From: Bdellovibrionales bacterium
GTDB lineage: Bacteria > Bdellovibrionota > UBA1018 > CAIMNF01
Assembly: GCA_018266375.1 (NCBI GenBank)
Contig: JAFEAO010000006.1
Location: 222,930-286,929 of the forward strand
Reading direction: 5' to 3'
Length of the DNA: 64,000 nucleotides
The translations under genes and the position numbers were made by a program. How positions within the stretch are numbered: position 1 is the stretch's first letter; each line of letters begins with the position of its first letter. Below are positions 13,183 to 28,934 of this stretch, piece after piece. The notes beneath the pieces were generated by a model. That model made no database searches and was not told where the DNA came from. It worked only from the letters and a program-made list of their open reading frames with translations.

Positions 13183-13188
13183 TGGAAC

Positions 13189-14223
13189 TTGGAATCCGCT
13201 AAGGTCACCCGATTTAAAGCGACCGATGTCCCTCGCCAGCAAGGCGAGGTGGGACGGATCCGTGTCATCAAAGGACCGGACAAGGGAACCACTTATGTTC
13301 TGAAGGACTCGTCGCTGGTCATCGGCCGCGGCGAAGACGTCGACGTCATGATCACCGACATCAAGGCATCACGCGCTCACGCGCGCCTCGATTACACGTC
13401 GGGTGGTTGGGTGATGAGCGACCTGGGCTCGGCGAACGGAATTTTCTTCCAAGGCGAATACATCCGCAAGTTCGGCGTCGCCAGCCATGACCACTTCACG
13501 GTGGGCGAAACGATTTTAGAGTTTTTGACTCATACCGAGTCCACTCGCGTGTTGATGGCGCCGACCCGTCCGGCTCAAGCCGTCGTGCAACAAGACCGCG
13601 CTCTCATCGCTCAGCGGATGAAAGTGCAATCGATGGCCAAAGGTCCGGAGATTACTCAAAAAGCCGGCGCCAAAAAAGAAGATCCGAAGAAGATCATGCT
13701 CTATTTGGCGCTTCTCGCCGGCGGTTACTACTTTATGTTCATGGACGATAATCCGCCTCCGAAAACCCAGGAGACGAAGAAAGAATCGAAGGTCGAGAAA
13801 GATCAAAACCGCGGGCTTGCGTCTTATCTGCCACCGGGCGTGGGTCGCGAAGCCGCGAAGAGCGCCGAACAAAGTTATTGGGAAGGTTTCCGCGAGTATC
13901 GCGAAGGCCACTACTTGCGTGCCAAGGAACACTTCGAGCTCGCTTTGCAAGTGAATCCGGCGCACGATCTCGCGAGATTTTATTTGAAGAGCGCGGACAA
14001 GGAAATTGACGACGAAGTGAAGAGGATGCTGATGGCGGCGCAGAAGGCGACCGTCGCCGGACGTCTGCGCGAGGCCAAAGGTTATTATGAAACCGCGATG
14101 CGTGCGATGTTTAACGATCGCAGCAATCCGGATTATATCGAAGCGGAGGAAGCTCTGAAAAAGCTCACGAATGAATTGACGGAATCAAACCGTGTACCCG
14201 CCTCGGGGGAGGGTAAACAATGA
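13189..14223 (+). CDS. FHA-domain protein with a TM segment and TPR-like C-terminus
   Basis: FHA motif (IGRGEDVDVMITDIKASRAHARL...DLGSANGIFFQG), TM segment IMLYLALLAGGYYFMF, then a helical repeat region. TTG start with an AAGGAG Shine-Dalgarno 8 nt upstream. Confidence 0.7.
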   Translation: MESAKVTRFKATDVPRQQGEVGRIRVIKGPDKGTTYVLKDSSLVIGRGEDVDVMITDIKASRAHARLDYTSGGWVMSDLGSANGIFFQGEYIRKFGVASHDHFTVGETILEFLTHTESTRVLMAPTRPAQAVVQQDRALIAQRMKVQSMAKGPEITQKAGAKKEDPKKIMLYLALLAGGYYFMFMDDNPPPKTQETKKESKVEKDQNRGLASYLPPGVGREAAKSAEQSYWEGFREYREGHYLRAKEHFELALQVNPAHDLARFYLKSADKEIDDEVKRMLMAAQKATVAGRLREAKGYYETAMRAMFNDRSNPDYIEAEEALKKLTNELTESNRVPASGEGKQ

Positions 14224-16532
14224 GTGCATTAATGAAACTGGAAGTATTTCAGGACGGACAGCTTCTTCAAGAAGTGCCGGTGGATGAAAACGAATTGTGG
14301 GTGGGTCGCGACCAAGGCTGCGTCATCCGGTTGGAAGACCGGGCGATATCTCGCCGGCACGCGCTTTTGAAGAGCACCGATCGCGGCATCGAGTTCGAAA
14401 AGAAATCGAAGTTCGGTTGGGTAAAGGTCAACGGGCAGGACGCAACCCAGATTACCTTGAAATCGGGCGACCGTGTGGAAATGGGTCCGTATGAAATCCG
14501 GGTATCGGGTGCCGATGCTCCGGCGGGTGCAAGCGCGTCCGCGGATGTGATTCAAATGGCTGCTCCTGCCAACACTCCGAACGGAATGACCGTCGGTCCT
14601 GTTGTCGAATCTCCGATCCAACTCAACGATCCGCTAACCGGCGAACCCGTTCCGGGCGTCGAAGCATTGCCAGCCATCGAAATTCCGGCGTCGAATCCGC
14701 CCGAGCACACCAAGGTGCTCGGTCAAACGGCTGAAATCGCAGTCCCAAGCAATGAAAACGGCAATGAGGTCGGCCTCGACGTTCAGAAGATCGAAAAGAC
14801 AAGCGCTGGCGGAAACACCGGCGCGATGGATTACGGCGCGGTGTCGAGCGACGGCGCGACCAAAGTGTTCGGTCGCAAGGATCCGATCAAAGCGATTCTT
14901 CAATTTAACGACGGTCAAGCCAACGTTTCTCAGTATGAACTGAACGACAACGAAATCGCGATTGGCCGTTCGCAGCAGTGTCACGTTGTTCTCGAAGATA
15001 AAAAGTCTTCGCGTAAGCATGCGATCATCCGCCGTGAAGGCGATAAGTATTACTTGAAAGACTTGGGCTCCGCTAACGGTACCCAAGTCAATGGCTCGCG
15101 CGTGGACGACGTCGAACTTCAGAGCGGCGACCAAATCCAAATCGGCGAAACCGCATTCGCATTCAAAATCGTGCAAGCCGACTATGAAATCAAAAAGGAA
15201 GGTTTCATCGCGGTTCCACAGCACGAGATGCCTCCACCGCCGCCAGTCGGCTCGCATCGGGACGCGAACGTGATCGAGTCGTTGGACTATATTCCTCCCG
15301 ATGTGGGCAATGCTCCGACTCCGCAGCCGGAATTCTCAGCTCCGAAAGCCGAAAAGAAATCGTTGATCGGTAAAGCACTCGATCGCTACCGCGCGATGAA
15401 TACCCGCCAGCAGATCATCTGGGGTATCCTGGTTCTCGCCAGCCTGTACGTACTGATGATGGACGAGGAAGGCGATCATCAGCCGGCACGCCTCAACACC
15501 GGCCTCGTTCAAAAGTCGAAAGCGACCAAGCCGGGCGATAGAAAACCGGGTGAAGGCCAGAGCTTCGACGCGTTGACCGCCGAGCAAAAACGTTACATCG
15601 AGACTCAGTATCAGCTCTCGTTCGATCTTTATAAAAACCGCGAGTACGATAAAGCGCTTCTCGAAGTGGGCAAGATATTCAGTCTCGTGCAAGACTACAA
15701 GAACGCACGCGAGATCGAAGCGTTTTCCCGCGAAGGTAAACGTAAGCTTGAAGCTCAGGAAGAAGAACGGAAACGTAAGGAGCAGGAACGTCAAAGCCAG
15801 CTCAAACTTCAAAGCTTGCTCGAGCAAGCCGACATGCTCATGAGCAAAAAGCGATTCCACGAGGCCGAAGCGCTCTTCCCTGAAATCGAATTGATTCAGC
15901 CGGAGAACGCGGCGGTAAACGAATGGCGTAAGATCATCATGGCCGAAGGCGAGCGTCTCGATCGTGAACGCGAAGAGCAAGAGCGTCAGCAAGCGCTCGT
16001 CCGCCAGGGTTGGTCGAAACTCCAACGCGCGGTCGATTACAAAAAGGATCACGACTATCAAACCGCACTCGACGAACTTAACGAGATTGACGAGCTCGGC
16101 GTTCAAGATAGAAAATTGAAGAACGCGGTCCGGGACGAAGATTCCGCGATCCGCGGTCGCATCGCGGCTGAACGCGATCCGCTCCTCGTTCAAGGTAAAG
16201 AACTCGAGCAAAGCGGACAGCTCGCCGAAGCTTACAAGGCTTACGAGAAAGCGCATACTATCGATCCGGACGACAAGGTGTCGGAACAGGGCATGGCCCG
16301 TATTCACGGTAACCTGACCGCCCGGGCGAAGGCTCTATATATAGAGGGCGTCTTTGCCGAAAGCTATAACGATCTGGAGACGGCGGAGCGCAGTTACCGC
16401 GAGATCCTGAGCGTTGTGCCCAAGGACGACGAATATCACGCCAAAGCGGAACTCCGCTTGAAGCGCGTGACTTCATTCCGTAGACCGGCGGGCTCGGCGA
16501 GCAACGCTGGCTCCGGGGAGTCGCCTCAATGA
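14220..16532 (+). CDS. Tandem-FHA (two FHA domains) membrane protein with a long coiled-coil/TPR-like C-terminus
   Basis: FHA 1 (VGRDQGCVIRLEDRAISRRHALL). FHA 2 (IGRSQQCHVVLEDKKSSRKHAII...DLGSANGTQVNG). TM segment IIWGILVLASLYVLMM. Charged coiled-coil region (EERKRKEQERQSQ). ATGA overlap with the upstream gene. Confidence 0.8.
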   Translation: MSALMKLEVFQDGQLLQEVPVDENELWVGRDQGCVIRLEDRAISRRHALLKSTDRGIEFEKKSKFGWVKVNGQDATQITLKSGDRVEMGPYEIRVSGADAPAGASASADVIQMAAPANTPNGMTVGPVVESPIQLNDPLTGEPVPGVEALPAIEIPASNPPEHTKVLGQTAEIAVPSNENGNEVGLDVQKIEKTSAGGNTGAMDYGAVSSDGATKVFGRKDPIKAILQFNDGQANVSQYELNDNEIAIGRSQQCHVVLEDKKSSRKHAIIRREGDKYYLKDLGSANGTQVNGSRVDDVELQSGDQIQIGETAFAFKIVQADYEIKKEGFIAVPQHEMPPPPPVGSHRDANVIESLDYIPPDVGNAPTPQPEFSAPKAEKKSLIGKALDRYRAMNTRQQIIWGILVLASLYVLMMDEEGDHQPARLNTGLVQKSKATKPGDRKPGEGQSFDALTAEQKRYIETQYQLSFDLYKNREYDKALLEVGKIFSLVQDYKNAREIEAFSREGKRKLEAQEEERKRKEQERQSQLKLQSLLEQADMLMSKKRFHEAEALFPEIELIQPENAAVNEWRKIIMAEGERLDREREEQERQQALVRQGWSKLQRAVDYKKDHDYQTALDELNEIDELGVQDRKLKNAVRDEDSAIRGRIAAERDPLLVQGKELEQSGQLAEAYKAYEKAHTIDPDDKVSEQGMARIHGNLTARAKALYIEGVFAESYNDLETAERSYREILSVVPKDDEYHAKAELRLKRVTSFRRPAGSASNAGSGESPQ

Positions 16533-17278
16533 GTTCTAGCGAGTCCTGGGTCAAAACGCGTCTTCCGTTCAAATGGGTCGAGGGATTCCAGCTTCAGGGC
16601 GGACTCCCGGTCCAAGAGGATTACTTCGAGGTCAATGCCGATCGCGGGATTTTTATTTTGGCCGATGGCTTTGGCGGCGGCGCGGGAAAGTACGCAGCCG
16701 AAGTCGCGGTGAAAGCCGTACGCCAATTCTTGGAACAGGAGGCGGGCGACTTGGATGCGACCCTTCCGTTCGAGTTGCGGCCGTATTTTTCGCTCGCGGG
16801 AAACGTACTTTTCAACGCGATTTCTTACGCTAATCAAAAACTCATCGCCGCTAACAAAGGCAAAAACCCGCTGAACTCGGGCGGAACTTCTTTGATCGCG
16901 GGATACCTCGAGGGGCGCTTGCTCTCGGTCGCGAACGTCGGCACCTGCAGTTTGTTTTTATCTCGTGACGGCAAGAGCAAAGAAATTTTGGTCCCGCGCT
17001 CGCTTGCAAAACAAGTGAACCCGTTCGCGGACAGCATGGTAGAAGGCGCCGGCGTGCCTTTGATGAGTCTCGGAACCGCTCGCCAGCTCGAGCCCGAGAT
17101 CGTGGAGATCGAAGTTCGCGAAGGCGACCAGCTTTGTTTTCAATCGGCGCCGGTCACTGCCGAACTTCGCGATCAGTTGTTTCAATTGAATTCCAACAAG
17201 GGATTAAGCCAAATCATTGACGCTCAAGATACGGCGGGCATTCAGGGCAACGCTAGCCTGATTTGGACGGCATTCTAA
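16529..17278 (+). CDS. PP2C-family Ser/Thr protein phosphatase
   Basis: PP2C motifs (FILADGFGGG, GGTSLIAGYL, VANVGTCSLFLSRDG), about 250 aa like Stp/PrpC phosphatases. ATGA overlap with the FHA gene. Confidence 0.75.
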   Translation: MSSSESWVKTRLPFKWVEGFQLQGGLPVQEDYFEVNADRGIFILADGFGGGAGKYAAEVAVKAVRQFLEQEAGDLDATLPFELRPYFSLAGNVLFNAISYANQKLIAANKGKNPLNSGGTSLIAGYLEGRLLSVANVGTCSLFLSRDGKSKEILVPRSLAKQVNPFADSMVEGAGVPLMSLGTARQLEPEIVEIEVREGDQLCFQSAPVTAELRDQLFQLNSNKGLSQIIDAQDTAGIQGNASLIWTAF

Positions 17279-17320
17279 ATACACTCTAAATATGTAATAA
17301 TTAGAGTGAGGGGGAAATCT

Positions 17321-17563
17321 GTGTTTAGGGCATTTTCTCGGAAATTGAAGGTGATTTTACACCGCCGTAAGAAGCGTCGCTTGGGCAACCAAGGGCAAGC
17401 TTTGGTGGAGTACATCATTCTCCTCACGATCGTGATGGGCGTGGTGGCCTATTTCCTGAGTAAAATGACGGGATCCTTTGATATGACGACCGCCAAATAC
17501 GGGGGAGTAATCGAGAAGCAGATCCGAACAGGCTCTGCTCCGGCAACGGTATGGAATCGATAA
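17321..17563 (+). CDS. flp: Flp-family prepilin
   Basis: Basic leader, then G/QALVEYIILLTIV (Flp G-XXXXEY processing motif) and a hydrophobic helix. GTG at 17321 with a GAGGGGG Shine-Dalgarno (the ORF track begins at an upstream GTG at 17306). Confidence 0.6.
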   Translation: MFRAFSRKLKVILHRRKKRRLGNQGQALVEYIILLTIVMGVVAYFLSKMTGSFDMTTAKYGGVIEKQIRTGSAPATVWNR

Positions 17564-17844
17564 TTGCTAAACGCAGGAAGACGCAGTCCGGCCAAGCCGT
17601 ACTCGAGTACATCCTGCTCTTGGCGATCATCGTGTTTTTATATTCGCTGGTTTTGAACTCGATCTCCGGCTCGAACGGCTTCGAGAACATGAAAAAGCCG
17701 CTGACCAAGGACTTCAAGTATACCTATCAATACGGTCATCCTGAGGCGAGGGGTCAAGAAGATGGCGGTCCCAAGTTTATCCCGCAGCATCACGACGGGG
17801 CCCAAAACTTCAGAATTTTCATTAATCCGCCGATTAATGAATAG
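17551..17844 (+). CDS. Flp/TadE-like prepilin (second pilin)
   Basis: SG/QAVLEYILLLAIIVF motif after a basic leader. About 97 aa. Confidence 0.55.
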   Translation: MESIIAKRRKTQSGQAVLEYILLLAIIVFLYSLVLNSISGSNGFENMKKPLTKDFKYTYQYGHPEARGQEDGGPKFIPQHHDGAQNFRIFINPPINE

Positions 17845-17846
17845 AG

Positions 17847-18461
17847 ATGAGCCGTAAAAAGTATAAACAAATCAACGACAAATGCGAAAGCCGGGCGAGC
17901 AAGACACACTTGCGTTCGAACGCACTCGCGCGCTCACAAAGCGGACAAGCGCTGATCGAGTTCGTTCTCGGACTGATGATCGTCATCTCGTTTTTCTTTT
18001 TCTACGTGAAGATGGCGGCGGTGTTCGCCGTCGGAAATTATATTCACTACGCAACCTTCATGGCCGCACGCGCCTACTCATCCGGCGCAGGCTCGCCTGA
18101 CGAGCAAACCGCGAACGCCGAAGCGGTGTTGCAAAAAATGGTCGCCGGCCGTTTTAAAACTCTTTTGAAGCCGTCGTCGGATTCGGGCGGCTCGGTTCCC
18201 GGTGCAACCGTCGGCCCGGGGCCGTGGTATCAAGACGATCCGGCCCAAGATAATTGGAACCAAGGCGTCACATACTCGTATTCGACGAAAGTCGCCCTCT
18301 ACCCGTGGAGTAAAGGCAATCAGGCGATCACCATGAAACTCACCAGCGAAAGCTGGATGCGCCGTGAAGATACCGAAACCGAATGTAATGCCAAAAAAGG
18401 CCGCATTCAAGGCGGGATTCGTCTGCAAAACATTTCTGTGGAGTGGGACAATGGTTGCTAA
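17847..18461 (+). CDS. tadE: TadE-like pseudopilin
   Basis: SG/QALIEFVLGLMIVISFFFF TadE-type N-terminus. About 200 aa with a Gly/Pro-rich middle region. Confidence 0.65.
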   Translation: MSRKKYKQINDKCESRASKTHLRSNALARSQSGQALIEFVLGLMIVISFFFFYVKMAAVFAVGNYIHYATFMAARAYSSGAGSPDEQTANAEAVLQKMVAGRFKTLLKPSSDSGGSVPGATVGPGPWYQDDPAQDNWNQGVTYSYSTKVALYPWSKGNQAITMKLTSESWMRREDTETECNAKKGRIQGGIRLQNISVEWDNGC

Positions 18462-19020
18462 GACAATAACCCACGCTCAACGTATTCAAGACAATTCGGG
18501 ACAAAGCATCCTCGAAGTGGTGTTCATTCTCCCGTTCCTGTTTTTGTTCGTTGGCATGCTCTACAAGATCAATATGGCGATTCAGATGGCGATCAACAAC
18601 ACGCAGTATGCTCGCTCGCAAATTTACGTGCTGACCGCGAATTCTCCGGAGTACCCGCGTTACGCGTTCCGTTTCCTCGAAAAGGACTTGTTCGGGATGA
18701 ACAACCAGGATCGGATGGTTCTCGGCGTGTCTGATCCGAAGGCGATCAGCCAAGCGGCTTCAAACGACTCGTCGATCGAACCGTTGCCGCAAACGACCAA
18801 GATCAATCGCGCGGGCACGACCGTCAAAGGCAGTAACGAACGCGGTGAAGTGAATCTGAGAAATGAAATCCGGGTTCGAAATACGTCCGCGATTTGCACG
18901 CAGTTGAACTCGGTCGGTTCGAAGACTCCTTGGAGTTCGTCGAACGTGGTGGGTTTGAAATCTAAGCGTTGGCCGTTTGGCCAAACAGTTTGCCAGTACA
19001 GTGGCAAGAAGGAAGGTTAA
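18451..19020 (+). CDS. TadE/TadF-like pseudopilin
   Basis: SG/QSILEVVFILPFLFLFV motif. Start moved to MVAKTIT (18451), which has a GGAG Shine-Dalgarno. The ORF-track start at 18364 overlaps tadE. Confidence 0.6.
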   Translation: MVAKTITHAQRIQDNSGQSILEVVFILPFLFLFVGMLYKINMAIQMAINNTQYARSQIYVLTANSPEYPRYAFRFLEKDLFGMNNQDRMVLGVSDPKAISQAASNDSSIEPLPQTTKINRAGTTVKGSNERGEVNLRNEIRVRNTSAICTQLNSVGSKTPWSSSNVVGLKSKRWPFGQTVCQYSGKKEG

Positions 19021-19022
19021 CG

Positions 19023-19862
19023 ATGAATAGTCGCGCGATGACACTCTCATTATTCATGGCCGGTGTGGCGGTGTTCTTTGTCATGAGTTCGGTCTCCAGC
19101 ATCGAAGACGAAGCCAAAAAAAAGTTCGGCGACGACGTCACGGTCCTGGTCGCGAAGAACGACATCAAAGAGATGGACTCGATCTTGGACGGGATGATCG
19201 AACCGCGCGTGGTCCCACGTCGTTTCGTCGAGCCGTCGGCGATCGCGTTCAACACCCTCGTCAAAGAAGACTCCCATGACTACGCGATGGAAACCAAGCG
19301 CATCATCGGTAACGTCGCGATCGTCCCGATCAAAAAGGGCGAGCAGCTGTCATTGAATAAAATCACCGAACCAAGTATGCGTACGGGTCTTGCGCCACAG
19401 GTGAGCCCCGGCAAACGTGCGATCTCCGTCAATGTCGATGAAACCTCGGGCGTCGCCAAGCTCATTAAGCCAGGCGACCGCGTGGATATCATCGCGGTGA
19501 TCGATCCGGGCAACGCGGTCGGTGGCCGCGACAACAAGGTCGCGAAGACGCTTTTCCAGGACATTGTTGTATTGGCGGTCGGACGCAATATTACCAACAA
19601 CCTCGCGCGTAAGATCGAACTTGACGCGATCACTGGCAAGGCCAAAGTCCGCTCGCTTACCGAGTTCGACGGATTTAGTTCCGTCACCTTGGAAGTGGAT
19701 CCGAATCAGGCTCAACTCTTGGCTGCGATCACGACGAGCAATATGAACCGTTTGGTGTTTACTCTACGGAACAACGACGATACCGACCGCACGAACTTGA
19801 TGTCCGTGCGTGCCGTTGATGCTTTGAGCGACGGATTGCGTATCCCGGCAGGAGGCAGATAA
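19023..19862 (+). CDS. cpaB: Flp pilus assembly protein CpaB/RcpC
   Basis: N-terminal TM anchor, then SAF/CpaB domain (IAVIDPGNAVGGRDNKVAKTLFQDIVVLAVG). Start MNSRAM at 19023 with an AAGGAAGG Shine-Dalgarno. Confidence 0.8.
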   Translation: MNSRAMTLSLFMAGVAVFFVMSSVSSIEDEAKKKFGDDVTVLVAKNDIKEMDSILDGMIEPRVVPRRFVEPSAIAFNTLVKEDSHDYAMETKRIIGNVAIVPIKKGEQLSLNKITEPSMRTGLAPQVSPGKRAISVNVDETSGVAKLIKPGDRVDIIAVIDPGNAVGGRDNKVAKTLFQDIVVLAVGRNITNNLARKIELDAITGKAKVRSLTEFDGFSSVTLEVDPNQAQLLAAITTSNMNRLVFTLRNNDDTDRTNLMSVRAVDALSDGLRIPAGGR

Positions 19863-21568
19863 TGAGAAACTTGCCGCTTTACCTCATCCCGAGCTTTATC
19901 GTTGCGTCGTTAGTTCTCGTGGGTGGCAAAGCTCACGCGCAAGAAGCGGGGGTACCGACAGTTGAAGCTGCGCCGACAACGGAGTCGGGTGAAGCCGAAA
20001 AGGGTGACGTCACTAAACCAAAGTCCCGCCGCAAAGTCGTCGAAACGAGAACCGGCGCGTCTAGATACACGAATGACCAAACCGAGCGCGAAGCCGATCA
20101 TCGTCCGGAGCTGGTTGCCGTTGGTGTCGATAAACTCATCGACATCGATCCGGCAATTAAGATCGGTGATCGCCAGGGTTCGATCTGGGAATCGAATAAA
20201 AACGTCGCATTGGTGCAGCTGGTGTCGGTCGGTAACAGGAAGCAGCTCATCTTGAAAGGCGTCGGCGAAGGCTCGGCGAACATTTTCATCCGGGATCAAG
20301 CGGGCAACGTCAAAATCGTGATCGACGTCACCGTCGCCAAGCAAAATATCATTAAGTACTACGAGCGCCTCAAAGAGAAGCTTAAGGAAGTCGAAGGTAT
20401 CACGATCGCGATCGAAGACCAAAAGGTCGTCATTCGCGGTGAAGTGTATACTGTGAACGATTACGGCACGATCGTCAACGAGATCGCCGAGAAGACCTAC
20501 GGGGATGCGGTGATCAACAAGGCGACGATCTCGACCGTATCTCTAAACCTGCTTGCTAAGAAAATCGCCGAAGACGTGCAAGTCTTCGCTCCGACCGTGA
20601 CCGCGACCGCATTGAACGGCCGTGTGATCATGGGCGGTTCGGTCGAGAGTGCCGCGGTTCGTGACCGTGCTCTCAAGCGCGCCGAGTATTACATTCCGGT
20701 GATTCGCGTGAGCGATCCGGTGGCATCGGCAACTAACATCGAAAAGAACGAGAAATCGCTCCAAATCATTCAAAACGACATTCAAGTCAATCCTCCTCCG
20801 CCGAAACGTGATTCGAAGCTCGTACGCCTGAGCCTTTACTTCGTGGAGTTGAGTAAGGACTTTTTGAAATCTTTTGGTTTCAAATGGCAGCCGGGATTTA
20901 CCGCGGATCCACAGATCTCGATCGGGAGCGCGACGGATGGGACGACATCGACCAGCAGCTCGGGCGGTTTTACCTTTTCGGGAACGCTTTCGAGTCTCTT
21001 CCCGGCGTTGAACGCGCCGCCTTCGAACGCGGGCTACGGCCGGATTTTGAAACAAGCCAATATTATCGTGAAGAGCGAGCAACAAGGTACGATTCGGGAC
21101 GAGCAAACCATTCCGACTCAACAGCTCGGTCCAAACGGAACCGTCGGCGCGGGTACCCCCGTCACGGTCGGCTTTTTGGCGATCATCACCCCGACCATCC
21201 TGCAAGGCCAGGACGTTGACCTCAACATCAATTTGACCCAGACTAACGCGCTTGCAAAGCAGCTGAACAATCAACCGTATACCGCAACTCACAAAGTTGA
21301 AACGCGTTTGTATCTCAAGTCAGGCGAAGTGGCAGCAGTCGCGGCGGTCAATAACCAGGACGTTTCGACGTCGTTTAACCGCGATGATCCGAACGCCGGA
21401 AGCTTCGGCGCGAGCACGAAGCCGCTCTTTACTTTGCAACGTTCAAAAAGTTCGTCGAACAAGCGCGGACAGTTCGTCGTGTTCGTTTCGCCGCAAATTA
21501 TCGATAGCGCGTCGGAAGGAACGGAAGATCTCAAAAAGAACTTCCGCATGCCGACCTCAACAAGATAG
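19862..21568 (+). CDS. cpaC: Flp pilus secretin CpaC/RcpA
   Basis: Signal peptide. N-domain repeats. C-terminal secretin domain (KPLFTLQRSKSSSNKRGQFVVFVSPQII). Confidence 0.85.
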   Translation: MRNLPLYLIPSFIVASLVLVGGKAHAQEAGVPTVEAAPTTESGEAEKGDVTKPKSRRKVVETRTGASRYTNDQTEREADHRPELVAVGVDKLIDIDPAIKIGDRQGSIWESNKNVALVQLVSVGNRKQLILKGVGEGSANIFIRDQAGNVKIVIDVTVAKQNIIKYYERLKEKLKEVEGITIAIEDQKVVIRGEVYTVNDYGTIVNEIAEKTYGDAVINKATISTVSLNLLAKKIAEDVQVFAPTVTATALNGRVIMGGSVESAAVRDRALKRAEYYIPVIRVSDPVASATNIEKNEKSLQIIQNDIQVNPPPPKRDSKLVRLSLYFVELSKDFLKSFGFKWQPGFTADPQISIGSATDGTTSTSSSGGFTFSGTLSSLFPALNAPPSNAGYGRILKQANIIVKSEQQGTIRDEQTIPTQQLGPNGTVGAGTPVTVGFLAIITPTILQGQDVDLNINLTQTNALAKQLNNQPYTATHKVETRLYLKSGEVAAVAAVNNQDVSTSFNRDDPNAGSFGASTKPLFTLQRSKSSSNKRGQFVVFVSPQIIDSASEGTEDLKKNFRMPTSTR

Positions 21569-21584: not shown

Positions 21585-23744
21585 ATGGGTCACATTATCG
21601 CGATCGTCGGAGGCAAAGGTGGAGTCGGGAAGAGCGTATTCGCCGCTAACATGGCGATTGCGTATCAACTCAACTTCAAGCAGCGCTCTCTGATTGTAGA
21701 TCTGGATTTCCAATCCTTGGGCGATCAAAACATCATTTTAGGCATGAACCCGCCTAAGAACATCGTCGATTTGACCAAGACTCAGGTCCCTCAGTGGGAT
21801 CCGAAGACGCTTGCGCCTTTCATGATGAACCATCAGCAGGGGTTCAGCTTCATCGGCGCGCCTCGCGAGGCGGCCGTCGCTAAAGACATCGACCTTGACG
21901 GCCTCGGAAAGTTCTTCAAAGCAGCGACTCAGATTTTTCCGTGGGTGATCGTGGACTGCGGCAGCGGTACCGAGCCTCATGCGTTGAAAGCGCTCGAGCA
22001 AGCGACGTTGATCTTCGTCGTGACCACACCGGATGTGATCGTGGTCAATCAAACCCGCCGGATTATGTCGAAGATCCAGGAACTCCTGTTTCCGCCGGAA
22101 ATGATTCAAATCATCATCAACCGTTACTCGCAAACCAACTTGATTAACCCGCAGATGATCCAAAAGAACTTGGGTAAAAGCCCGTTCTTCGCGATCCCGG
22201 AAGAAGCCGCGACCTGCGAGGCGTCCCTCGCGAAGAGTCAGCCGTTTACCATCGCTAACCCGGGCGCGCCGATCTCGCGCGCGTTCTCCGACCTTGTCCG
22301 CCGCATCGATCAAGCCAAGATGCTCGAACAATTGGCGAAGCTCAACAAACCGACCGGTACCGCAAAGAAGCTCGAAGTCATTCAAGGTGGAGCGAGTGCC
22401 AGCATTATGCCTGCCCCAACCGACGGTGGAATCATTTCGCGCTCGCGTTCGGCTCCGGTCGATCCATGGACCGCGATGAAGTTACGCGTGCACCGCGCGC
22501 TTATCGACGTCGTCGACATGAAGAAGATGAACGCCGATATGAACGATCCTCGTCAGAAGGACGTCTTGCGCGCGAAGACCACGAAAGCGATCGTCGACGT
22601 TCTGAATAAAGAAGATTTGGCTCAGTTGTGCCCGACGCGCGAACACCGCGCTCAACTCGTCAAAGAGATCTTGGATGAAGCCTTGGGCTTAGGACCGCTC
22701 GAAGATTTGCTCGCCGACGATACCGTGACCGAGATCATGGTCAATGCGCGCGACCAGATTTACGTCGAGCAAGGCGGCCGCCCCGGCCTCTCGAAAGTAA
22801 CCTTTACCAGCGAACAGCAAATGATGAACGTGATCGAACGGATCGTGACTCCGCTCGGGCGCCGCGTGGATGAAAAAACTCCGTACGTCGACGCTCGTTT
22901 GCAAGACGGTTCGCGGGTGCACGTGATCATTCCGCCACTCGCGCTCCGAGGCCCGACGATTACGATTCGTAAGTTCCCTAAAAAACGGATCGTAGCGACC
23001 GACCTCGTGAAGTTCGGTTCGATGACTCAGGAGATTTCGGATTTTCTCCGTGCCTGCGTCGAAGCCAAGCTCAACATGATCGTGTCGGGTGGTACCGGTT
23101 CAGGTAAAACCACTTTGCTGAATGTATTGTCGAACCATATTCCCGCGAACGAACGGATTATCACCGTCGAGGACGCGGCCGAATTGCAGCTCGGCCAGGA
23201 CCACGTCGTGCGTCTGGAGACTCGTCCGAAAAACATCGAAGGCGAGGGTGAAGTTTCGATTCGTGATTTGATTAAGTCGTGTTTGCGGATGCGTCCTGAC
23301 CGGATTGTGGTCGGTGAGTGTCGGGGCGGCGAAGCCCTCGACATGTTGCAAGCGATGAACACCGGTCACTCGGGGTCGCTCACTACCGTCCATGCCAACA
23401 ACCCACGCGAGTCGCTTGGCCGCCTTGAGACGCTCGTGATGATGGCGGGTTTGGGTCTTCCGCTAAAAGCGATTCGCGAGACGATCGCGTCCGCGGTTAA
23501 CGTAGTCGTGCAACAATCACGTTTGGCGGATGGATCGCGTAAGGTGACCCATATTTCGGAAGTCGTCGGTATTCAAGGCGACACAATCACGCTTCAAGAT
23601 ATTTTCGTGTTCAAGCAAGAAGGTTTGGATAAAAACCGTAAGATCATCGGCCGTTTCGTGCCGACGGGTTTCATCCCAAAATTTATCGAAGAGATGGAAG
23701 CAAAGGGCATGAAGGTCTCACGCGGCCTCTTCGTGGCCAAGTAA
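21585..23744 (+). CDS. Fused TadZ/CpaE-like (ParA/MinD-type) ATPase and TadA/CpaF secretion ATPase
   Basis: N-terminal deviant Walker A IVGGKGGVGKS (ParA/MinD fold, about 260 aa). The C-terminus is a full CpaF/VirB11-type ATPase: Walker A GGTGSGKTT, Asp box, Walker B, His box (GECRGGEALDMLQAMNTGHSGSLTTVHAN). One continuous 719-aa ORF. Confidence 0.85.
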   Translation: MGHIIAIVGGKGGVGKSVFAANMAIAYQLNFKQRSLIVDLDFQSLGDQNIILGMNPPKNIVDLTKTQVPQWDPKTLAPFMMNHQQGFSFIGAPREAAVAKDIDLDGLGKFFKAATQIFPWVIVDCGSGTEPHALKALEQATLIFVVTTPDVIVVNQTRRIMSKIQELLFPPEMIQIIINRYSQTNLINPQMIQKNLGKSPFFAIPEEAATCEASLAKSQPFTIANPGAPISRAFSDLVRRIDQAKMLEQLAKLNKPTGTAKKLEVIQGGASASIMPAPTDGGIISRSRSAPVDPWTAMKLRVHRALIDVVDMKKMNADMNDPRQKDVLRAKTTKAIVDVLNKEDLAQLCPTREHRAQLVKEILDEALGLGPLEDLLADDTVTEIMVNARDQIYVEQGGRPGLSKVTFTSEQQMMNVIERIVTPLGRRVDEKTPYVDARLQDGSRVHVIIPPLALRGPTITIRKFPKKRIVATDLVKFGSMTQEISDFLRACVEAKLNMIVSGGTGSGKTTLLNVLSNHIPANERIITVEDAAELQLGQDHVVRLETRPKNIEGEGEVSIRDLIKSCLRMRPDRIVVGECRGGEALDMLQAMNTGHSGSLTTVHANNPRESLGRLETLVMMAGLGLPLKAIRETIASAVNVVVQQSRLADGSRKVTHISEVVGIQGDTITLQDIFVFKQEGLDKNRKIIGRFVPTGFIPKFIEEMEAKGMKVSRGLFVAK

Positions 23745-23768: not shown

Positions 23769-24635
23769 TCAACTTTTGTCTTCCACGTCTTGCACTTCGA
23801 TCAAGTAGCAGTAAAGATCGCTACGGTTACAGAGTTGGAACGGATAGTAATGATAGCCTTTCTCGCCGCAATCCGTGCCCCAGCTGTTCTTCACGATGAA
23901 GTAACCGCCACCCGCGATGCTGTTGTCGAGTTTGTAACCCACGGCTTCGATCACGTGCTGGCCGCTGGTGTAACCCGAAGTCGCGCTGATGTCGGTCTTA
24001 CAGTTCGCGAGATCGCTTGGCACTTGAATCGCGAGTACGAGAGGCCTTTTATCCCGTCCCATCGCTTGAAGAGCCGGTTTCCAATCGTATTCGAACTCCT
24101 TGTACTGAGTAATTCGGAGGGTCGCGAAGTCCTTATAGTTAGAAGCGCGGCTACCGTTGATCGGCCAGTATTTTTCTTCGGTAATGTAGTTCTTCTTGGC
24201 CGCATCGACCGCGTACCAGGCGTCGTAGACCCCGTAGGTATCCCACAAATGGCGTTCCGAAACGTTTTTGTCGATGCCTTTTGATTTTAGGACGTTGTCC
24301 ATCGCCGCTGCAGTGGCGAACGTCGAGCAGGTCCCGCCGAATTGAGAGACGACCGGCCCGTCGAATTGCCTCATATCCAAGTTATCCGGAATGCCGAGTT
24401 CGATCCCGAGCTTGCTGCTGCCGATACCGCCGCCGACGACCGGAGTGGCTGTTGGAGCCGGAGTCGCGGATGATCTTGGAGTAGGCGTGGGAGACGCTTG
24501 CGGTGACGAGTTCGGGGTCGGACTCGCGGTAGGGTTCGTCGGGTCAAATCCCGCCGGCAATTCGCACGCTGTGAGCAAAAATATGGAGGCGAGGAAGAGA
24601 GATATGTCTCGTCGATAACGTCCTTGTCGCTGCAT
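23769..24635 (-). CDS. Lipoprotein papain-like (C1-family) cysteine peptidase
   Basis: Lipobox LLTAC. Pro/Thr/Ser-rich linker. Catalytic Cys (GGTCSTFATAAAMD), His (SGQHVIEAVGY) and Asn/Trp (IVKNSWGTDCGEKGY) regions. Confidence 0.7.
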   Translation of the reverse strand: MQRQGRYRRDISLFLASIFLLTACELPAGFDPTNPTASPTPNSSPQASPTPTPRSSATPAPTATPVVGGGIGSSKLGIELGIPDNLDMRQFDGPVVSQFGGTCSTFATAAAMDNVLKSKGIDKNVSERHLWDTYGVYDAWYAVDAAKKNYITEEKYWPINGSRASNYKDFATLRITQYKEFEYDWKPALQAMGRDKRPLVLAIQVPSDLANCKTDISATSGYTSGQHVIEAVGYKLDNSIAGGGYFIVKNSWGTDCGEKGYHYYPFQLCNRSDLYCYLIEVQDVEDKS

Positions 24636-24910
24636 TTAAAACTCCTTGATGAATTTTTTTCATATCCCTATGAAAAAATTAAACATCATTTGTAGAATAA
24701 ATGTGTGCGTGAGGGAGTTCTATGTTTTTTGATCTAAGACATCGAGTCAAAAGGTTGGCAATTCCACCAGTAGAAGGAAGTTTCTAATTTTTATATACAA
24801 TTTGTGTAAAAAATAAATATTAAAACCTTACTCGGAATTAAAAATTTCGCACGCACCGCACAAAAACGCTGAATCCTTCCTGTTTTTAAATCATCGTTAT
24901 AGAATAGTAA

Positions 24911-25789
24911 GTGATGAACTTCGCAGCTCCGCACTGGCTACTTGCGATCGTGGTATTTATCTCCGCGCTTTTGGTAGCCTACCAATTTTCGGGCCGTATC
25001 TTGGATTGGATTCGCTTCCAATCCATCGGCACGCGCGACTACATCGCCGACAAGTTGCAGTTGATGATGATGGACATCCCGCCTGAACGGATTTTGATCG
25101 GGCAGGTGAGCTTAAGTCTGGGCTTAGGGATGCTGGTGTTCCTCCTGTGTTTGCCGAATTTCGCGGTAGGCGGCATTTTCGGCGTGATTTCGATGTTAAT
25201 CGGGTGGATTCTTCCTCGACCGATCATCGATATCATGTACGGCAGCCGGTGCACTAAGTTTGTCGAGCAGATGGTCGACGGCTTGGGCCTCATGTCTAAC
25301 GGCATGCGCTCGGGACTTTCGGTCGTGCAAGCGATGGGTCTCGTCGCGCAAGAGATGCCGAATCCGATTCAGCAGGAGTTCAATCTGATTTTGAGTCAGA
25401 ACAAACTCGGCGTTTCTCTCGAAGAGGCTTTCTTGAATCTTTCTCGCCGGGTTGTCGCCGACGAGGTCGAGATGTTCGTGACGTCCGTAAATATTTTGAA
25501 AGAAACCGGCGGTAATTTGGCGGAGACGTTCGATACGATCACGACCTTGATTCGCGAGCGGATCAAGGTTGAAGGAAAAATCAAAGCAATGACCGCCCAG
25601 GCTTTCTGGCAGGGCATTATCTTGATGTGCGTACCTCCGTTTATGGCGACCGTACTCAGTCAGTCCGATCCTGAACTCATGCGTCCGATGTTTACGCACC
25701 CGCTCGGTTGGGTGATTTTGACGGTGGTTGTGATCCTCGAGGTCGCGGCGTTTTTTATGATTCGGAAAGTTACAAAAATCGACGTATAA
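24911..25789 (+). CDS. tadB: Flp pilus assembly protein TadB (T2SS F domain)
   Basis: GspF-like domain flanked by TM helices. Preceded by a 275-bp AT-rich divergent promoter region. Confidence 0.8.
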   Translation: MMNFAAPHWLLAIVVFISALLVAYQFSGRILDWIRFQSIGTRDYIADKLQLMMMDIPPERILIGQVSLSLGLGMLVFLLCLPNFAVGGIFGVISMLIGWILPRPIIDIMYGSRCTKFVEQMVDGLGLMSNGMRSGLSVVQAMGLVAQEMPNPIQQEFNLILSQNKLGVSLEEAFLNLSRRVVADEVEMFVTSVNILKETGGNLAETFDTITTLIRERIKVEGKIKAMTAQAFWQGIILMCVPPFMATVLSQSDPELMRPMFTHPLGWVILTVVVILEVAAFFMIRKVTKIDV

Positions 25790-25867
25790 TCAATAGTGTA
25801 AGTTTAAAGTCGGCAGTTCAGACTTCGGTAGTGATACTACAGCAGTTTCGCTTCAGAGGAGAGAATC

Positions 25868-27556
25868 ATGAAGATTCTATTGGCATTGGGTGTATTAACT
25901 TCGATTTCAACCGCCTATGCGCGCGCGGATGTGAGTCTGCGTAACGGTAACTTTTACGTTACTTTCCGCGATATTTCTTATCCTGGCGGGATCGAACCCA
26001 AGTTCGAACGTGTTTATAACTCCAAATCCGATTTTCACGGTATCTTCGGCTTCGGTTGGGGAACCGAGTATGAAACCTCGCTTGCGATCGATTCCGACGG
26101 CAGTATCGTCGTCAACGAGTACGGCGGCGGGGCTGAAAACCGTTTTACGTCGAAGAATGCCAAGCCCGCTGATCTTGAAAAGGGCGTGAATGATCTCGTC
26201 GAAGCCGCGAAAAAGAGCGGTGTCGTGACAACGAAAGCCCAGATCGACGATTTTAGAACTCATTTGAAAACCGATTTTGAATTCCGTTCGAGACAATACG
26301 GCATTTACTCGAATAAAGGTCTCGTCGCCAAGAAAGCGGTCCGGGAAGGGACGCAGTTTACTTCGACCCGCTATCTGTACCAGTACATCACTAAGGTCAA
26401 AGGCGGTTACGTCCGCGTGATGGAAGGCGGCGTGATTCAAAAATTCAACGAGGCGGGCAGACTCGTTCAGATCATGGATCGTAACAAAAACTTCGTGAAC
26501 TTCAGTTACGATAAGGGCAATAGACTGGTGCAGCTCGTGGACAACCAGAACCGCAAAATGATCCTAAGCTACAATACCCAGGGCTTGGTCGAGAAAATTG
26601 TCGGCGAGAGCGGTAAAAATACGGCTTACAAATACACTAAAGAAGGTCTTCTGAGTTATTGCAGGGACGATGTCGGCGAAGAGAATACTTTTGCTTACAC
26701 GACGGACGCCTACCGGAACTTGTCCGAGATCGGTTATCCGAAAGAGAAAGACTCTAAGGGTAAGCCCAAAAAGATGTCCATCTCTTACTACGGCTCGGAT
26801 AAAAACACCGGCGTAAAATCGGTGACCAATCCGGATGGAAGCGTGAACGAATACGAATATTACAAGGACCCGAAAAATCCGGACTACTACGGAGTGCGCG
26901 TGTTCCTGAAAGATTCTTCGGGCGCGCGGATCAGCGACGCAAAATATGAATACTTTTCAAAACCTCGTCCGGGCGGCGAGGTCTTTACCCAAAAGATGAT
27001 TTCAACCGTCGATGGCGACAAAACTGAAACCTATTACGACTTGAAAACCGGATTTCCGGCTAAAGTCGTGAACGGCACTCGCGTGACGACGATGGCGTAC
27101 GACGTAAAAGGCCGTCTTGTTAAAAAGGTCACCCCGATCGAAACCACCGAGCTCAGTTACGATGCTAAAGTAGGGAAGGTCAATAAAGTCGTACGCAAGC
27201 TAAAGAGCGGAACCGTGCTCTGGAGCCAGTTCGAATACGAGGCATCGACCGGCAACTTATCTCTCGCCAAAAATAACGAAAAGAAGCAAGTGAAGTTGAT
27301 CCACGACACCGCCGGAAATATCCGCGCGCTTATCGATCAGAGCGGCCGCAAACTTACGTTTAAGTACAACGAGCTTTCAAAGCCGGTTGAGATCTCGGAT
27401 GCGAAGCTCGGTACCGTGAAGGTGATGTATAAAAACAGTGGCGAAGTCGATAAGATCGAGAGTAACGGCGGCAGTAACGTCGCGACCGAGGTCATGCGAG
27501 CGCTTCAGGGTTTGCTTGATATCACTGCTCCGGCGGGTGTGAGTTTAGGTTTGTAA
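25868..27556 (+). CDS. Secreted YD/RHS-repeat protein
   Basis: Signal peptide MKILLALGVLTSISTAYARA. Several YD repeats (NFVNFSYDKGNRLVQLVDNQNRKMILSYNTQGLVEKIV, MAYDVKGRLVKKV, LSYDAKVGKVNKV). No toxin tail. Confidence 0.6.
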   Translation: MKILLALGVLTSISTAYARADVSLRNGNFYVTFRDISYPGGIEPKFERVYNSKSDFHGIFGFGWGTEYETSLAIDSDGSIVVNEYGGGAENRFTSKNAKPADLEKGVNDLVEAAKKSGVVTTKAQIDDFRTHLKTDFEFRSRQYGIYSNKGLVAKKAVREGTQFTSTRYLYQYITKVKGGYVRVMEGGVIQKFNEAGRLVQIMDRNKNFVNFSYDKGNRLVQLVDNQNRKMILSYNTQGLVEKIVGESGKNTAYKYTKEGLLSYCRDDVGEENTFAYTTDAYRNLSEIGYPKEKDSKGKPKKMSISYYGSDKNTGVKSVTNPDGSVNEYEYYKDPKNPDYYGVRVFLKDSSGARISDAKYEYFSKPRPGGEVFTQKMISTVDGDKTETYYDLKTGFPAKVVNGTRVTTMAYDVKGRLVKKVTPIETTELSYDAKVGKVNKVVRKLKSGTVLWSQFEYEASTGNLSLAKNNEKKQVKLIHDTAGNIRALIDQSGRKLTFKYNELSKPVEISDAKLGTVKVMYKNSGEVDKIESNGGSNVATEVMRALQGLLDITAPAGVSLGL

Positions 27557-27632
27557 GTGTTTGTTTTTAAATGATATTAATTTAATAAACTCAAAATTAC
27601 ATTTGAGATACACTAGTCAGGAGAGGTTCTGG

Positions 27633-27884
27633 ATGAAAACCGTAAGTATTTTAAGTCTTTTGATTCTCGCCGTCGTTACTGAAGTTCGCGCCGAGATGAC
27701 CACCAGCCAGACCAACGCTAACGAGCCTTACTATTGCGAACCCTGTAAGAAGTGGATTTTCCCGAAACTGGGCTCAAAGAACGACGCCGTCGCGCCCACG
27801 GCCGTCGTCGAGGACGCGGTAGCTCCGGGTGAGGTTCGTAAGGCCAACGATGCGGTCGATCCTCCTGCTTCTGGGACGCATTAA
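27633..27884 (+). CDS. Small secreted protein (83 aa) with an Ala/Val/Asp/Pro repeat tail
   Basis: MKTVSILSLLILAVVTEVRA signal peptide with an AGGAGAGG Shine-Dalgarno. C-terminal imperfect repeats (NDAVAPTAVVEDAVAPGEV...NDAVDPPA) encoded by near-direct DNA repeats. Confidence 0.45.
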   Translation: MKTVSILSLLILAVVTEVRAEMTTSQTNANEPYYCEPCKKWIFPKLGSKNDAVAPTAVVEDAVAPGEVRKANDAVDPPASGTH

Positions 27885-27977
27885 TCGCCTATCATTCGAC
27901 CTAATCCATAGCATTATCCCCAAGTAGTATTTCCATTGAGTTGCGCGCCGCTTCCGGTGTAAATTAGGAAACAATTC

Positions 27978-28934
27978 ATGGATCAAAACGAGCTTAAAAA
28001 CCTGGCGCGACCGTTGTCGCCGTCTGAGGCCAAAAAGATCACTCCACTCAAAAAACCGGAGTGGCTTAAGATCCGTCCGCCTGCCGGCGAGAACTATCTC
28101 GAAATCAAAAAACTTTTACGCGAACGTGGCCTCCACACCGTGTGTGAGGAAGCGCATTGCCCGAACGTCGCCGAGTGTTGGGCGAGCGGCACCGCAACCT
28201 TCATGCTTGGGACTGAAGTGTGCACTCGCGCCTGTCGTTTTTGCGCGATCAAGACCGCGCGTCGTCCGCCTCCTCTCGATCCTGAAGAACCCTTCAAAGT
28301 CGCCGAGGCAGTATCGAAGCTTAAATTAAAATATGTCGTCCTTACGTCAGTCGATCGCGACGATATGGCCGACGGCGGAGCTAACCACTTTGCAGCAACG
28401 ATTCGTGAACTCAAGCGTCTCGACCCAAATTTAATCGTCGAAGCGCTCGTTCCCGATTTCCGCGGCGATCTTAAAGCCGTCGAAATCATCGTCGATAGCG
28501 GGCTTGACGTTTATGCGCACAATGTGGAGACAGTTCGCCGCCTTCAGTATCGTGTTCGTGACCCGCGTGCGGGGTATCAGCAAAGTCTGACCACGCTCAA
28601 ATACGCAAAAGACTACGCGCGCTCAAAAAATAAGTCGCTTCACACCAAGAGCTCGATTATGCTGGGATTAGGTGAGGATGTCGTCGAGCTTCAAGAGGCG
28701 TTCAATGATTTGCACGCGCACGAGATCGATGTTTTGACATTGGGTCAGTACCTGCGTCCGTCGATGACCCACCTTCCGGTTGAGAAGTACTATTCTCCCG
28801 AGGAGTTTAAGCAACTTGAAGATGTTTCAAAAGAGACCGGCTTTTTGTACGTAGCTTCCGGACCGATGGTTCGTTCGAGCTACAAAGCGGCGGAATTGTT
28901 TATTCACGGACTCATTCAAAAAGGAAAGGCATAA
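27978..28934 (+). CDS. lipA: Lipoyl synthase
   Basis: Radical-SAM and auxiliary-cluster cysteine motifs (CEEAHCPNVAECW, CTRACRFCAI). Confidence 0.95.
   Translation: MDQNELKNLARPLSPSEAKKITPLKKPEWLKIRPPAGENYLEIKKLLRERGLHTVCEEAHCPNVAECWASGTATFMLGTEVCTRACRFCAIKTARRPPPLDPEEPFKVAEAVSKLKLKYVVLTSVDRDDMADGGANHFAATIRELKRLDPNLIVEALVPDFRGDLKAVEIIVDSGLDVYAHNVETVRRLQYRVRDPRAGYQQSLTTLKYAKDYARSKNKSLHTKSSIMLGLGEDVVELQEAFNDLHAHEIDVLTLGQYLRPSMTHLPVEKYYSPEEFKQLEDVSKETGFLYVASGPMVRSSYKAAELFIHGLIQKGKA

Follow-up and report, generated by a model that had tools for sequence, protein, structure and literature searches.

Within the 64,000-nt stretch of DNA analysed here (the window), positions 25868-27884 hold two adjacent genes that probably represent the counterpart, in an uncultivated Bdellovibrionales lineage, of the host-interaction (hit) module of Bdellovibrio bacteriovorus, which comprises the last two genes of a Tad/Flp (type IVb) pilus cluster. 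The larger gene can be assigned with high confidence as an orthologue of the Bd0109 gene. The smaller one is, with moderate confidence, the positional and architectural counterpart of Bd0108, and a common descent of these two small genes is plausible. Among genetic handles on the Bdellovibrio switch between obligate predation and prey-independent growth, the hit locus is the best known. The Bd0108-Bd0109 pair controls pilus extrusion, and mutations in bd0108 lead to host-independent growth (PMC3818213, PMC11323537). Binding of the small partner and a requirement for viability serve as functional criteria of the Bd0109 family (PMC3818213, PMC4267844). Bd0108 itself is secreted and intrinsically disordered, has a disulfide between C56 and C59, binds Bd0109 through its N-terminal part and keeps a mobile C-terminus (PMC4267844). 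The two genes of the window and the region between them are the following:

25868-27556, plus strand: RHS gene, 562 aa, orthologue of Bd0109 (Pfam, BLASTP, AlphaFold2, Foldseek)
27557-27632, plus strand: intergenic region, 76 nt (sequence, alignment to the related locus L081)
27633 (ATG) to 27884 (stop), plus strand: small secreted open reading frame (ORF), 83 aa, putative counterpart of Bd0108 (translation, alignments, AlphaFold2)

The larger gene lies directly 3' of tadB, and its product presents a signal-like N-terminus (MKILLALGVLTSISTAYA-RA, the hyphen marking the putative cleavage site), a Pfam DUF6531 domain (residues 22-84) and RHS_repeat matches. The AlphaFold2 model (predicted local distance difference test, pLDDT, 87; predicted template modelling score, pTM, 0.79) comprises an N-terminal beta domain, a three-helix insert, a run of hairpins and a C-terminal helix, and the resulting layout places the DUF6531 domain at residues ~19-95, the insert at 100-149, the YD beta-hairpins at 163-532 and the final helix at 536-556. 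BLASTP aligned this protein with Bd0109 at 31% identity (residues 2-562 against 3-550, E 2e-77), which is in the range observed for other proteins of the pilus cluster against their counterparts in the B. bacteriovorus-type contig L083 (29-49%). An initial annotation of this stretch, made from the sequence alone, had described a signal-peptide YD/RHS protein without a toxin tail after tadB. This description was confirmed by the DUF6531 and RHS_repeat matches, the lack of a DPxGL motif and the T2SSF domain encoded at 24911-25789. The protein is 100% identical to NCBI entry JST80_10430, from a metagenome-assembled genome (MAG) labelled 'Bdellovibrionales bacterium'.

The comparison with B. bacteriovorus required the recovery of authentic hit sequences. 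A scan of genome contigs returned 80 related loci, with B. bacteriovorus not among them because the N-terminus of Bd0109 (VDMKNANYS) deviates from the first scan pattern. An X-masked query assembled from primer-encoded fragments (Table 6, PMC3818213) retrieved two proteins, P0123 (101 aa) and P0124 (87 aa). The former is authentic Bd0108, as all the HD100 residues given in PMC4267844 agree (N32, D36, A52, C56, C59, R81, K84 and Q101), and the latter lacks exactly residues 73-86 of Bd0108, corresponding to a natural instance of the classical 42-bp-deletion allele. This allele (missing RRHDDTVSREIKGS) was located at 8521-8784 of contig L083 and at 598-861 of contig L084, assembled from public sequencing runs (Logan runs SRR26832509 and SRR26832510), and carries two further substitutions relative to P0123 (T18A and S44T). 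Two other leads were discarded. A metagenome scan with the published bd0108 reverse transcription PCR primer yielded a chance match in an unrelated eukaryote-like sequence (L082), and a guessed primer peptide, 'KDSWSFP', resembling 'KKWIFP' in the window, was abandoned when the real Bd0108 revealed that the primer encodes KRLLVLS, in the signal peptide.

The Bd0109 sequence was taken from contig L083, which encodes the P0124-type bd0108 region and was verified as B. bacteriovorus-type because the published primer-encoded peptides ALVDMKNANYS, YPDGLV and PATAELYL occur in its RHS protein. The gene order of this contig (two TadE-like genes, CpaB, secretin, TadZ-TadA, TadB, the 550-aa RHS protein Bd0109 and bd0108) confirmed the placement of bd0108 and bd0109 relative to the tad genes that the initial annotation had given. 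The same order is found in the window, the only difference being a C1 peptidase gene inserted in the window lineage.

The comparative analysis of related loci outlined a conserved association with the pilus cluster, the RHS gene immediately following tadB in 70 of 73 loci, the exceptions being Geobacter, Geomonas and one Bryobacterales MAG. A signal-peptide ORF of 60-108 aa starting at most 330 nt downstream of the RHS gene was detected in 65 of 71 loci, and all but one of the small ORFs (67/68) contained at least one cysteine in their mature part. The cysteine pattern differs among groups, with usually exactly one residue in the Bacteriovoracaceae-type clade, CxxC or four cysteines in the window clade and CxxC in Bd0108. 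The CxxC motif is kept in P0122, in locus L086 and in nearly all of the window clade. Across loci, the tails of these small proteins are rich in Ala, Ser, Lys, Gly, Pro and Thr.

Several loci (L016, L027, L045, L051, L055 and L058) presented two tandem small signal-peptide ORFs after the RHS gene, and the window a single one. These tandem arrangements recall HD100 Bd0108 with BD_RS00505/Bd0103 and Bacteriovorax marinus BMS_0183/0184. Short DUF6531 and RHS homologues outside the Bdellovibrionota, at 34-37% identity, were found at 4975-6564 of L073 (Geobacter sp. OR-1), at 6001-7506 of L078 (Geomonas paludis) and in L069, with neither adjoining tad genes nor a small secreted ORF. The neighbours of the two Geobacteraceae homologues are WD40 proteins 1683-1725 aa in length, and a second copy, in divergent orientation, is present in L073.

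The presence of YD repeats and a DUF6531 domain, with a small ORF immediately 3', is also what a classical Rhs polymorphic toxin followed by a small immunity protein would present, and the nearest solved folds are indeed type VI secretion system (T6SS) Rhs effectors. Foldseek returned T6SS Rhs cores as the top matches of the RHS model (E ~1e-25), with low TM-scores because those cores are about twice as long. A toxin/immunity pair is nevertheless extremely improbable here. Neither Pfam nor AlphaFold2 indicated a C-terminal toxin domain in the 562-aa protein, the sequence of which stops right after the repeats, and the DPxGL autoprotease motif was found in none of the 74 family members (0/74), all of which share this toxin-less ending. 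Furthermore, the protein carries a predicted Sec signal peptide instead of a PAAR or VgrG linkage, 70 of 73 loci place its gene within the Tad operon, and the product of the small ORF is in turn predicted to be exported and disordered, unlike cytoplasmic immunity proteins. The family, with lengths of 532-571 aa among its 74 members, is a distinct toxin-less, half-size RHS subfamily.

The C-terminus of the RHS protein (encoded at 27523-27556), where helix 536-556 is followed by P-A-G-V-x-L, is among the best-conserved parts of the family alignment. Residues P555, A556, G557 and V558 are invariant or nearly so, and Bd0109 has the C-terminal end …LLDIIAPATAELYL. This conserved C-terminus may be a docking or plug element.

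The second gene of the putative hit module encodes an 83-aa protein and is preceded by a ribosome-binding site, GGAGAGG, at a proper distance from the ATG at 27633. The predicted signal peptide spans residues 1-20 (…VTEVRA-EM, with a signal-peptidase-I-type site VRA-E, the hyphens marking the cleavage) and a CEPC motif (CxxC) occupies residues 35-38, in agreement with the secreted 83-aa ORF that had been noted at 27633-27884. The mature protein divides into a conserved core (EMTTSQTNANEPYYCEPCKKWIFPKLG, residues 21-47) and a fast-evolving tail (residues 48-83), predicted to be disordered, which reads KNDAVAPTAVV-EDAVAPGEVRKA-NDAVDPPASGTH and includes three [NE]DAV[AD]P motifs. The AlphaFold2 model, based on an alignment of two sequences only, presents a short hairpin around the CxxC motif, with pLDDT below 50 and polar composition for residues 47-83. 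Flp/Tad prepilins are defined by a TadV-processed leader ending in G and followed by XXXXEY. No such leader (G/XXXXEY) was found in the small ORF, and motifs of this type occur in the upstream ORFs at 17306-18461.

The small ORF matched no Pfam family, and P0122, 77% identical, was the one relative returned by a word-indexed search of 5.8 billion proteins. When the small-ORF profile was run with HMMER against the full set of 1.84 billion representatives, it added only two matches, P0125 and P0126, which were rejected as homologues, being tandem-repeat proteins that have only a short [Y/W]..C..C[KE][KR][WY] motif in common with it. P0126, a surface-protein-like sequence of 514 aa, contains four tandem copies of …EPTCTENGVNEYYYCERCEKYF…, and the second half of the unit resembles the window core NEPYYCEPCKKWIF at the motif level. 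The CxxC core may correspond to a zinc-knuckle- or hairpin-type mini-motif that recurs in other proteins.

Given its short length, the lack of a Pfam family and the single relative among 5.8 billion proteins, the 83-aa ORF could be taken for a chance ORF in non-coding DNA between the RHS gene and lipA. Comparison with the closest homologous locus, L081, makes this hardly credible. The ratio of nonsynonymous (dN) to synonymous (dS) substitution rates was 0.04 for the RHS gene (dN 0.037, dS 0.95) and 0.01 for lipA (dN 0.007, dS 0.85). For the small ORF it was 0 in the core (codons 21-47; dN 0, dS 0.33) and 0.25 in the tail (codons 48-83; dN 0.28, dS 1.12, with one 1-codon indel). These values indicate that the small gene is coding, with a strongly constrained core and a weakly constrained tail. 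The intact frame in the homologue, the well-spaced ribosome-binding site, the canonical signal peptide and the presence of an equivalent ORF in 65 of 71 loci likewise argue against a chance origin.

Other close pairs presented the same split between core and tail, with tail dN/dS ranging from 0.07 to ~1 and no consistent signal of positive selection on the tail. The possibility that the tail is a hypervariable hotspot, raised by its 66% identity against 92-96% in the flanks, was rejected, as its dS (1.1) is close to the background of 0.85-0.95 and its dN/dS is 0.25. The synonymous rate of the tail being that of the genomic background, it is the tail that is weakly constrained and the flanks that are unusually conserved.

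Several observations weigh against equating the locus with the hit module. No alignment of the small ORF with Bd0108 was obtained by BLASTP at E<=100, hhalign matched a profile of 15 clade members to Bd0108 through the signal peptides only (probability 34%), and the HMMER profile scan from the small ORF did not reach Bd0108 among the 1.84 billion representatives. In addition, a segment equivalent to residues 32-55 of Bd0108 (~25 residues, including the conserved 32-40, implicated in Bd0109 binding) is missing in the window protein. Together, the lack of similarity and the missing segment make common descent inseparable from a repeated recruitment of unrelated small secreted peptides at this position. 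The signal peptides of both proteins were called by the -3/-1 rule of thumb, and the source organism is an uncultured MAG. As for the Bd0109-binding region, the window ORF and Bd0108 have only NAN[ER]P in common, close to the start of the mature protein and too short a match to carry weight. The equivalence to the hit locus put forward in the initial annotation is therefore upheld by the position of both genes and by the sequence of the large one, but not by the sequence of the small one: in the BLAST of both ORFs against Bd0108 and Bd0109 that it had suggested, the large ORF aligns end to end with Bd0109 and the small ORF finds no Bd0108 match.

The missing similarity says little, however, because the identity of small partners is already at noise level when their RHS partners are 88% identical. 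In a partner-matched comparison drawn from 68 loci, the identity of the small ORFs was 88% where the RHS proteins were 97% identical, 74-80% at 93% RHS identity, 53% at 92% and 19-23% at 88%, with random pairs of small ORFs yielding 23 ± 7%. At the 31% identity between the window RHS protein and Bd0109, no similarity to Bd0108 would hence be expected.

The same data bear on the alternative that the small ORFs are unrelated to Bd0108, that is, peptides acquired or exchanged time and again at an operon end that tolerates such changes, and lacking a common function, which would make the window ORF a lineage-specific orphan. The absence of detectable similarity to Bd0108 fits this scenario, as do the two tandem small ORFs of some loci and the situation in L086. 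In this locus the RHS protein is 88% identical to that of the window and the lipA promoter is near-identical, yet the small ORF (77 aa), lying between conserved flanks, is essentially unalignable at the DNA level. We nonetheless regard this scenario as unlikely. The decay of identity is graded with RHS divergence, so that fast divergence suffices to explain it, and the core is under purifying selection. A signal peptide, a cysteine (67/68) and a tail predicted to be disordered persist, and the aromatic-flanked CxxC is found in the window, in L086 and in their clade, with the small ORFs of L086 and the window sharing only their layout and an aromatic-x-aromatic-C-x-x-C-K motif (WKWCSSCKAYI and PYYCEPCKKWIF, respectively).

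The combination seen in L086, where 88% RHS identity and near-identical flanking promoter DNA are kept around an unalignable ORF, also suggests a more speculative role for the small partner, as a strain-specific specificity determinant. Under this proposal, the conserved CxxC 'handle' would dock in the conserved half-shell RHS protein, while the Tad pilus pole would display or release the hypervariable tail, which would act as a peptide for recognition or self-signalling. Diversifying selection, or the replacement of cassettes between the conserved flanks, would account for its turnover. We consider this quite improbable, and the interpretation of the pair as a diverged hit module is retained in what follows.

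The initial annotation had also proposed that, if the locus is the equivalent one, imperfect direct repeats in the DNA of the tail serve as the slippage substrate behind the switch between predatory and prey-independent growth. In such a mechanism, slippage or recombination would produce in-frame deletions at high frequency. This proposal draws on bd0108, where the common 42-bp deletion is flanked by a perfect 10-bp direct repeat (this analysis; PMC3818213). The real bd0108 (DNA in L085) contains CAAAGGCTCC twice, spaced 42 bp apart, and the deleted allele P0124 does occur in public sequencing runs. The peptide repeats of the window tail were also borne out, with the three DAVxP units (a 4-of-5 pattern occurring three times) being significant against shuffles of the mature sequence (P ~1e-4) and of the tail alone (P ~1e-3).

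The DNA does not follow suit, and a slippage device in the window is very unlikely. The two 13-mers in question, aacgacgccgtcg and aacgatgcggtcg (27780-27792 and 27846-27858), agree at only 11 of 13 bases and are identical over no more than 5 consecutive nt. A pair as good or better turned up in 14% of codon-shuffled versions of the small ORF, so the description of direct DNA repeats was not sustained. Neither a repeat-family search nor Tandem Repeats Finder reported this pair, and no tandem array was detected in the tail. The longest exact direct repeats in the small ORF are 8 nt long, join the signal-peptide region to the tail and are at chance level (P 0.2-0.3). Hence, no perfect repeat flanking an in-frame deletion hotspot, nor anything comparable to the bd0108 repeat, was found in the window small ORF. 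The three peptide units are written in different codons, indicating that they are not being homogenised. The closest homologue, L081, keeps the three units, and its tail differs by substitutions and one 1-codon indel, with no gain or loss of a repeat unit; in the next relative, L086, no DAVxP-type repeat is present.

The DAVxP repeat, degenerate and kept only weakly in the sole close homologue, is an ancient peptide repeat that has since decayed, in a tail under weak constraint, and perfect direct repeats characterise B. bacteriovorus alleles without being required of the family as a whole. Nor are repeats needed for the switch, as frameshifts and substitutions of various kinds make up most of the host-independent bd0108 alleles in the literature (PMC11323537).

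The remainder of the pilus cluster and its immediate neighbourhood in the window comprise the following features, listed with the evidence for each:

~17.3-27.9 kb, plus strand: Tad/Flp pilus cluster (ORF list, Pfam)
17306-17563, 17551-17844, 17847-18461 and 18364-19020, plus strand: four TadE/pseudopilin-type ORFs (translations)
18969-19862, plus strand: CpaB/RcpC (Pfam RcpC, 2e-22; 40% identity to the L083 counterpart)
19862-21568, plus strand: Tad secretin, CpaC/RcpA (Pfam Secretin; 29% identity to the L083 counterpart)
21585-23744, plus strand: TadZ-TadA fusion ATPase (Pfam CbiA/ParA and T2SSE, 2e-64; 49% identity to the L083 counterpart)
23769-24635, minus strand: papain-family (Peptidase_C1) gene (Pfam)
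24911-25789, plus strand: TadB-type platform protein, counterpart of Bd0110 (Pfam T2SSF, 5e-19; 40% full-length identity to the L083 counterpart)
27936-27965, plus strand: promoter-like element before lipA, with TTGAGT, an 18-nt spacer and TAAATT (alignment of 10 clade loci)
27978-28934, plus strand: lipA (ORF list, Pfam)

A Pfam search of the four TadE/pseudopilin-type ORFs (17306-19020) returned no match. Their translations revealed a prepilin-like G-Q-A-[LV]-[ILV]-E-[YF] motif in three of the four, and BLASTP weakly matched the ORF at 17847-18461 to the gene that opens the B. bacteriovorus cluster. The Peptidase_C1 gene, antisense between tadZ-tadA and tadB, encodes a protein with a lipoprotein-like N-terminus (…LLTAC) and a Pro/Thr/Ser-rich linker. 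The same insertion was found in the P0003 contig, the RHS protein of which is 77% identical, and is absent from L083 and from all the genome loci (80/80).

Upstream of the pilin-like ORFs, translations read by eye pointed to three large FHA-domain-like proteins (11335-13182, 13189-14223 and 14220-16532), the last with TPR-like helical repeats, and to a PP2C-like phosphatase (16529-17278) directly before the pilin-like ORFs, all within 11335-17278. The presence of FHA-like and PP2C-like genes suggests that the pilus cluster could be under Ser/Thr-phosphorylation control.

At the other end of the cluster, the TTGAGT/TAAATT element before lipA is kept in ten clade loci, although it scores under the threshold in a consensus promoter scan. 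Its conservation indicates that lipA apparently has its own transcript, the tad-hit unit ending with the small ORF. A sigma-70 and terminator scan and an Rfam search of 24500-28500 returned nothing relevant.

The intergenic regions on either side of the small ORF (27557-27632 and 27885-27977) are 92% and 96% identical to L081, with adjacent genes at dS ~0.9, and the first 141 nt of the small ORF also present a low dS (0.23-0.33). The upstream region contains an AT-rich imperfect palindrome (~27564-27590; TTAAAT[GA]ATATTAATTTAA at ~27570-27590), kept in L081 and L086. A -10-like TACACT is also present there, together with the GGAGAGG ribosome-binding site. Inverted repeats of a similar kind, TAAACA…TGTTTA, lie 3' of the RHS stop codon in loci L005 and L008. 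The palindrome region may serve the small gene as an operator or as a promoter of its own.

A working model can be outlined for the pair by analogy with what has been published on Bd0108 and Bd0109. The product of the first gene, which has an N-terminal DUF6531 domain but neither toxin nor autoprotease, would be exported via Sec and fold into roughly one half of an RHS/YD shell, and that of the second would be a small Sec-exported protein with a short conserved CxxC core and a disordered, fast-diverging tail. The two proteins would meet in the periplasm, where the conserved core of the small protein would bind the RHS protein at low affinity. Pilus extrusion and retraction would thereby be modulated and coupled to growth control, as in B. 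bacteriovorus (PMC3818213, PMC4267844, PMC11323537). Provided that the organism is predatory, mutations that abolish the function of the small gene, whatever their type, could allow it to grow without prey.

These results indicate that, well beyond the genus Bdellovibrio, Tad clusters still end with the Bd0109 gene and a slot of the Bd0108 type. BLAST-based reports have described Bd0108 as 'unique to Bdellovibrio' or as 'absent' in many strains (PMC3818213, PMC5941755, PMC11870529). Since the small partner becomes unrecognisable by ~88% RHS identity, such reports are best read as detection failures. Small secreted ORFs next to Bd0109 homologues were already known (PMC4267844, PMC10469934), and what is added here is a quantified rate of divergence of the small partner and a near-universal cysteine hallmark, which together explain why comparative studies score Bd0108 as absent (PMC5941755, PMC11870529). 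Position, signal peptide and the presence of Cys or CxxC provide better search criteria for Bd0108-like partners. For this particular locus, the tempting mechanism of repeat slippage is removed.

Among known systems, T6SS Rhs effectors, the BC components of Tc toxins and the YD shells of teneurins share with the window RHS protein the YD beta-hairpin spiral fold and the DUF6531 N-terminal region. The window protein differs from them in having about half their length, and so would not form a closed cocoon alone, and in lacking the DPxGL aspartyl protease, a toxin cargo domain and a PAAR/VgrG context. A closer parallel is offered by the small secreted ORFs described beside Bd0109 homologues, such as BMS_0183/0184 of B. 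marinus SJ (PMC4267844), and by the arrays of short signal-peptide genes beside Bd0109/Bd0103 homologues in Bdellovibrionales MAGs from activated sludge (PMC10469934). Like the window ORF, these present little or no similarity to Bd0108 and adjoin a Bd0109 homologue at the end of a pilus cluster; unlike the window, where a single small ORF is followed at once by lipA, they comprise two or three.

With regard to B. bacteriovorus itself, the window lineage differs by its opposite-strand papain-like lipoprotein gene between tadA and tadB and by a conserved gap of 76 nt, instead of 15 nt, between the RHS gene and the small ORF. Sequence identity to Bd0109 is only 31%, and the RHS protein has a single, non-conserved cysteine where Bd0109 has four. 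The small protein has no detectable sequence similarity to Bd0108, its CxxC motif lies ~15 residues past the cleavage site instead of ~32, and no perfect direct DNA repeat is present in its gene. Nevertheless, the large protein matches Bd0109 in its signal peptide, its N-terminal DUF6531-type domain, its ~11-14 YD units, its length of ~550 aa and its lack of a toxin, and the two are collinear over their full length and encoded directly after tadB and before a small secreted ORF. Likewise, the small gene is, as bd0108, the final gene of the Tad cluster, on the same strand and directly after the RHS gene, and encodes a protein of comparable size (83 aa against 101 aa) with a predicted Sec signal peptide. 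Both small proteins present a single CxxC followed by hydrophobic or aromatic residues and a polar Gly/Ala/Pro/Ser/Thr-rich tail, which in the window protein is predicted to be disordered, and in both the N-terminal part is more conserved than the tail, as seen in the core/tail split of the window ORF and in the published data on Bd0108 (PMC4267844).

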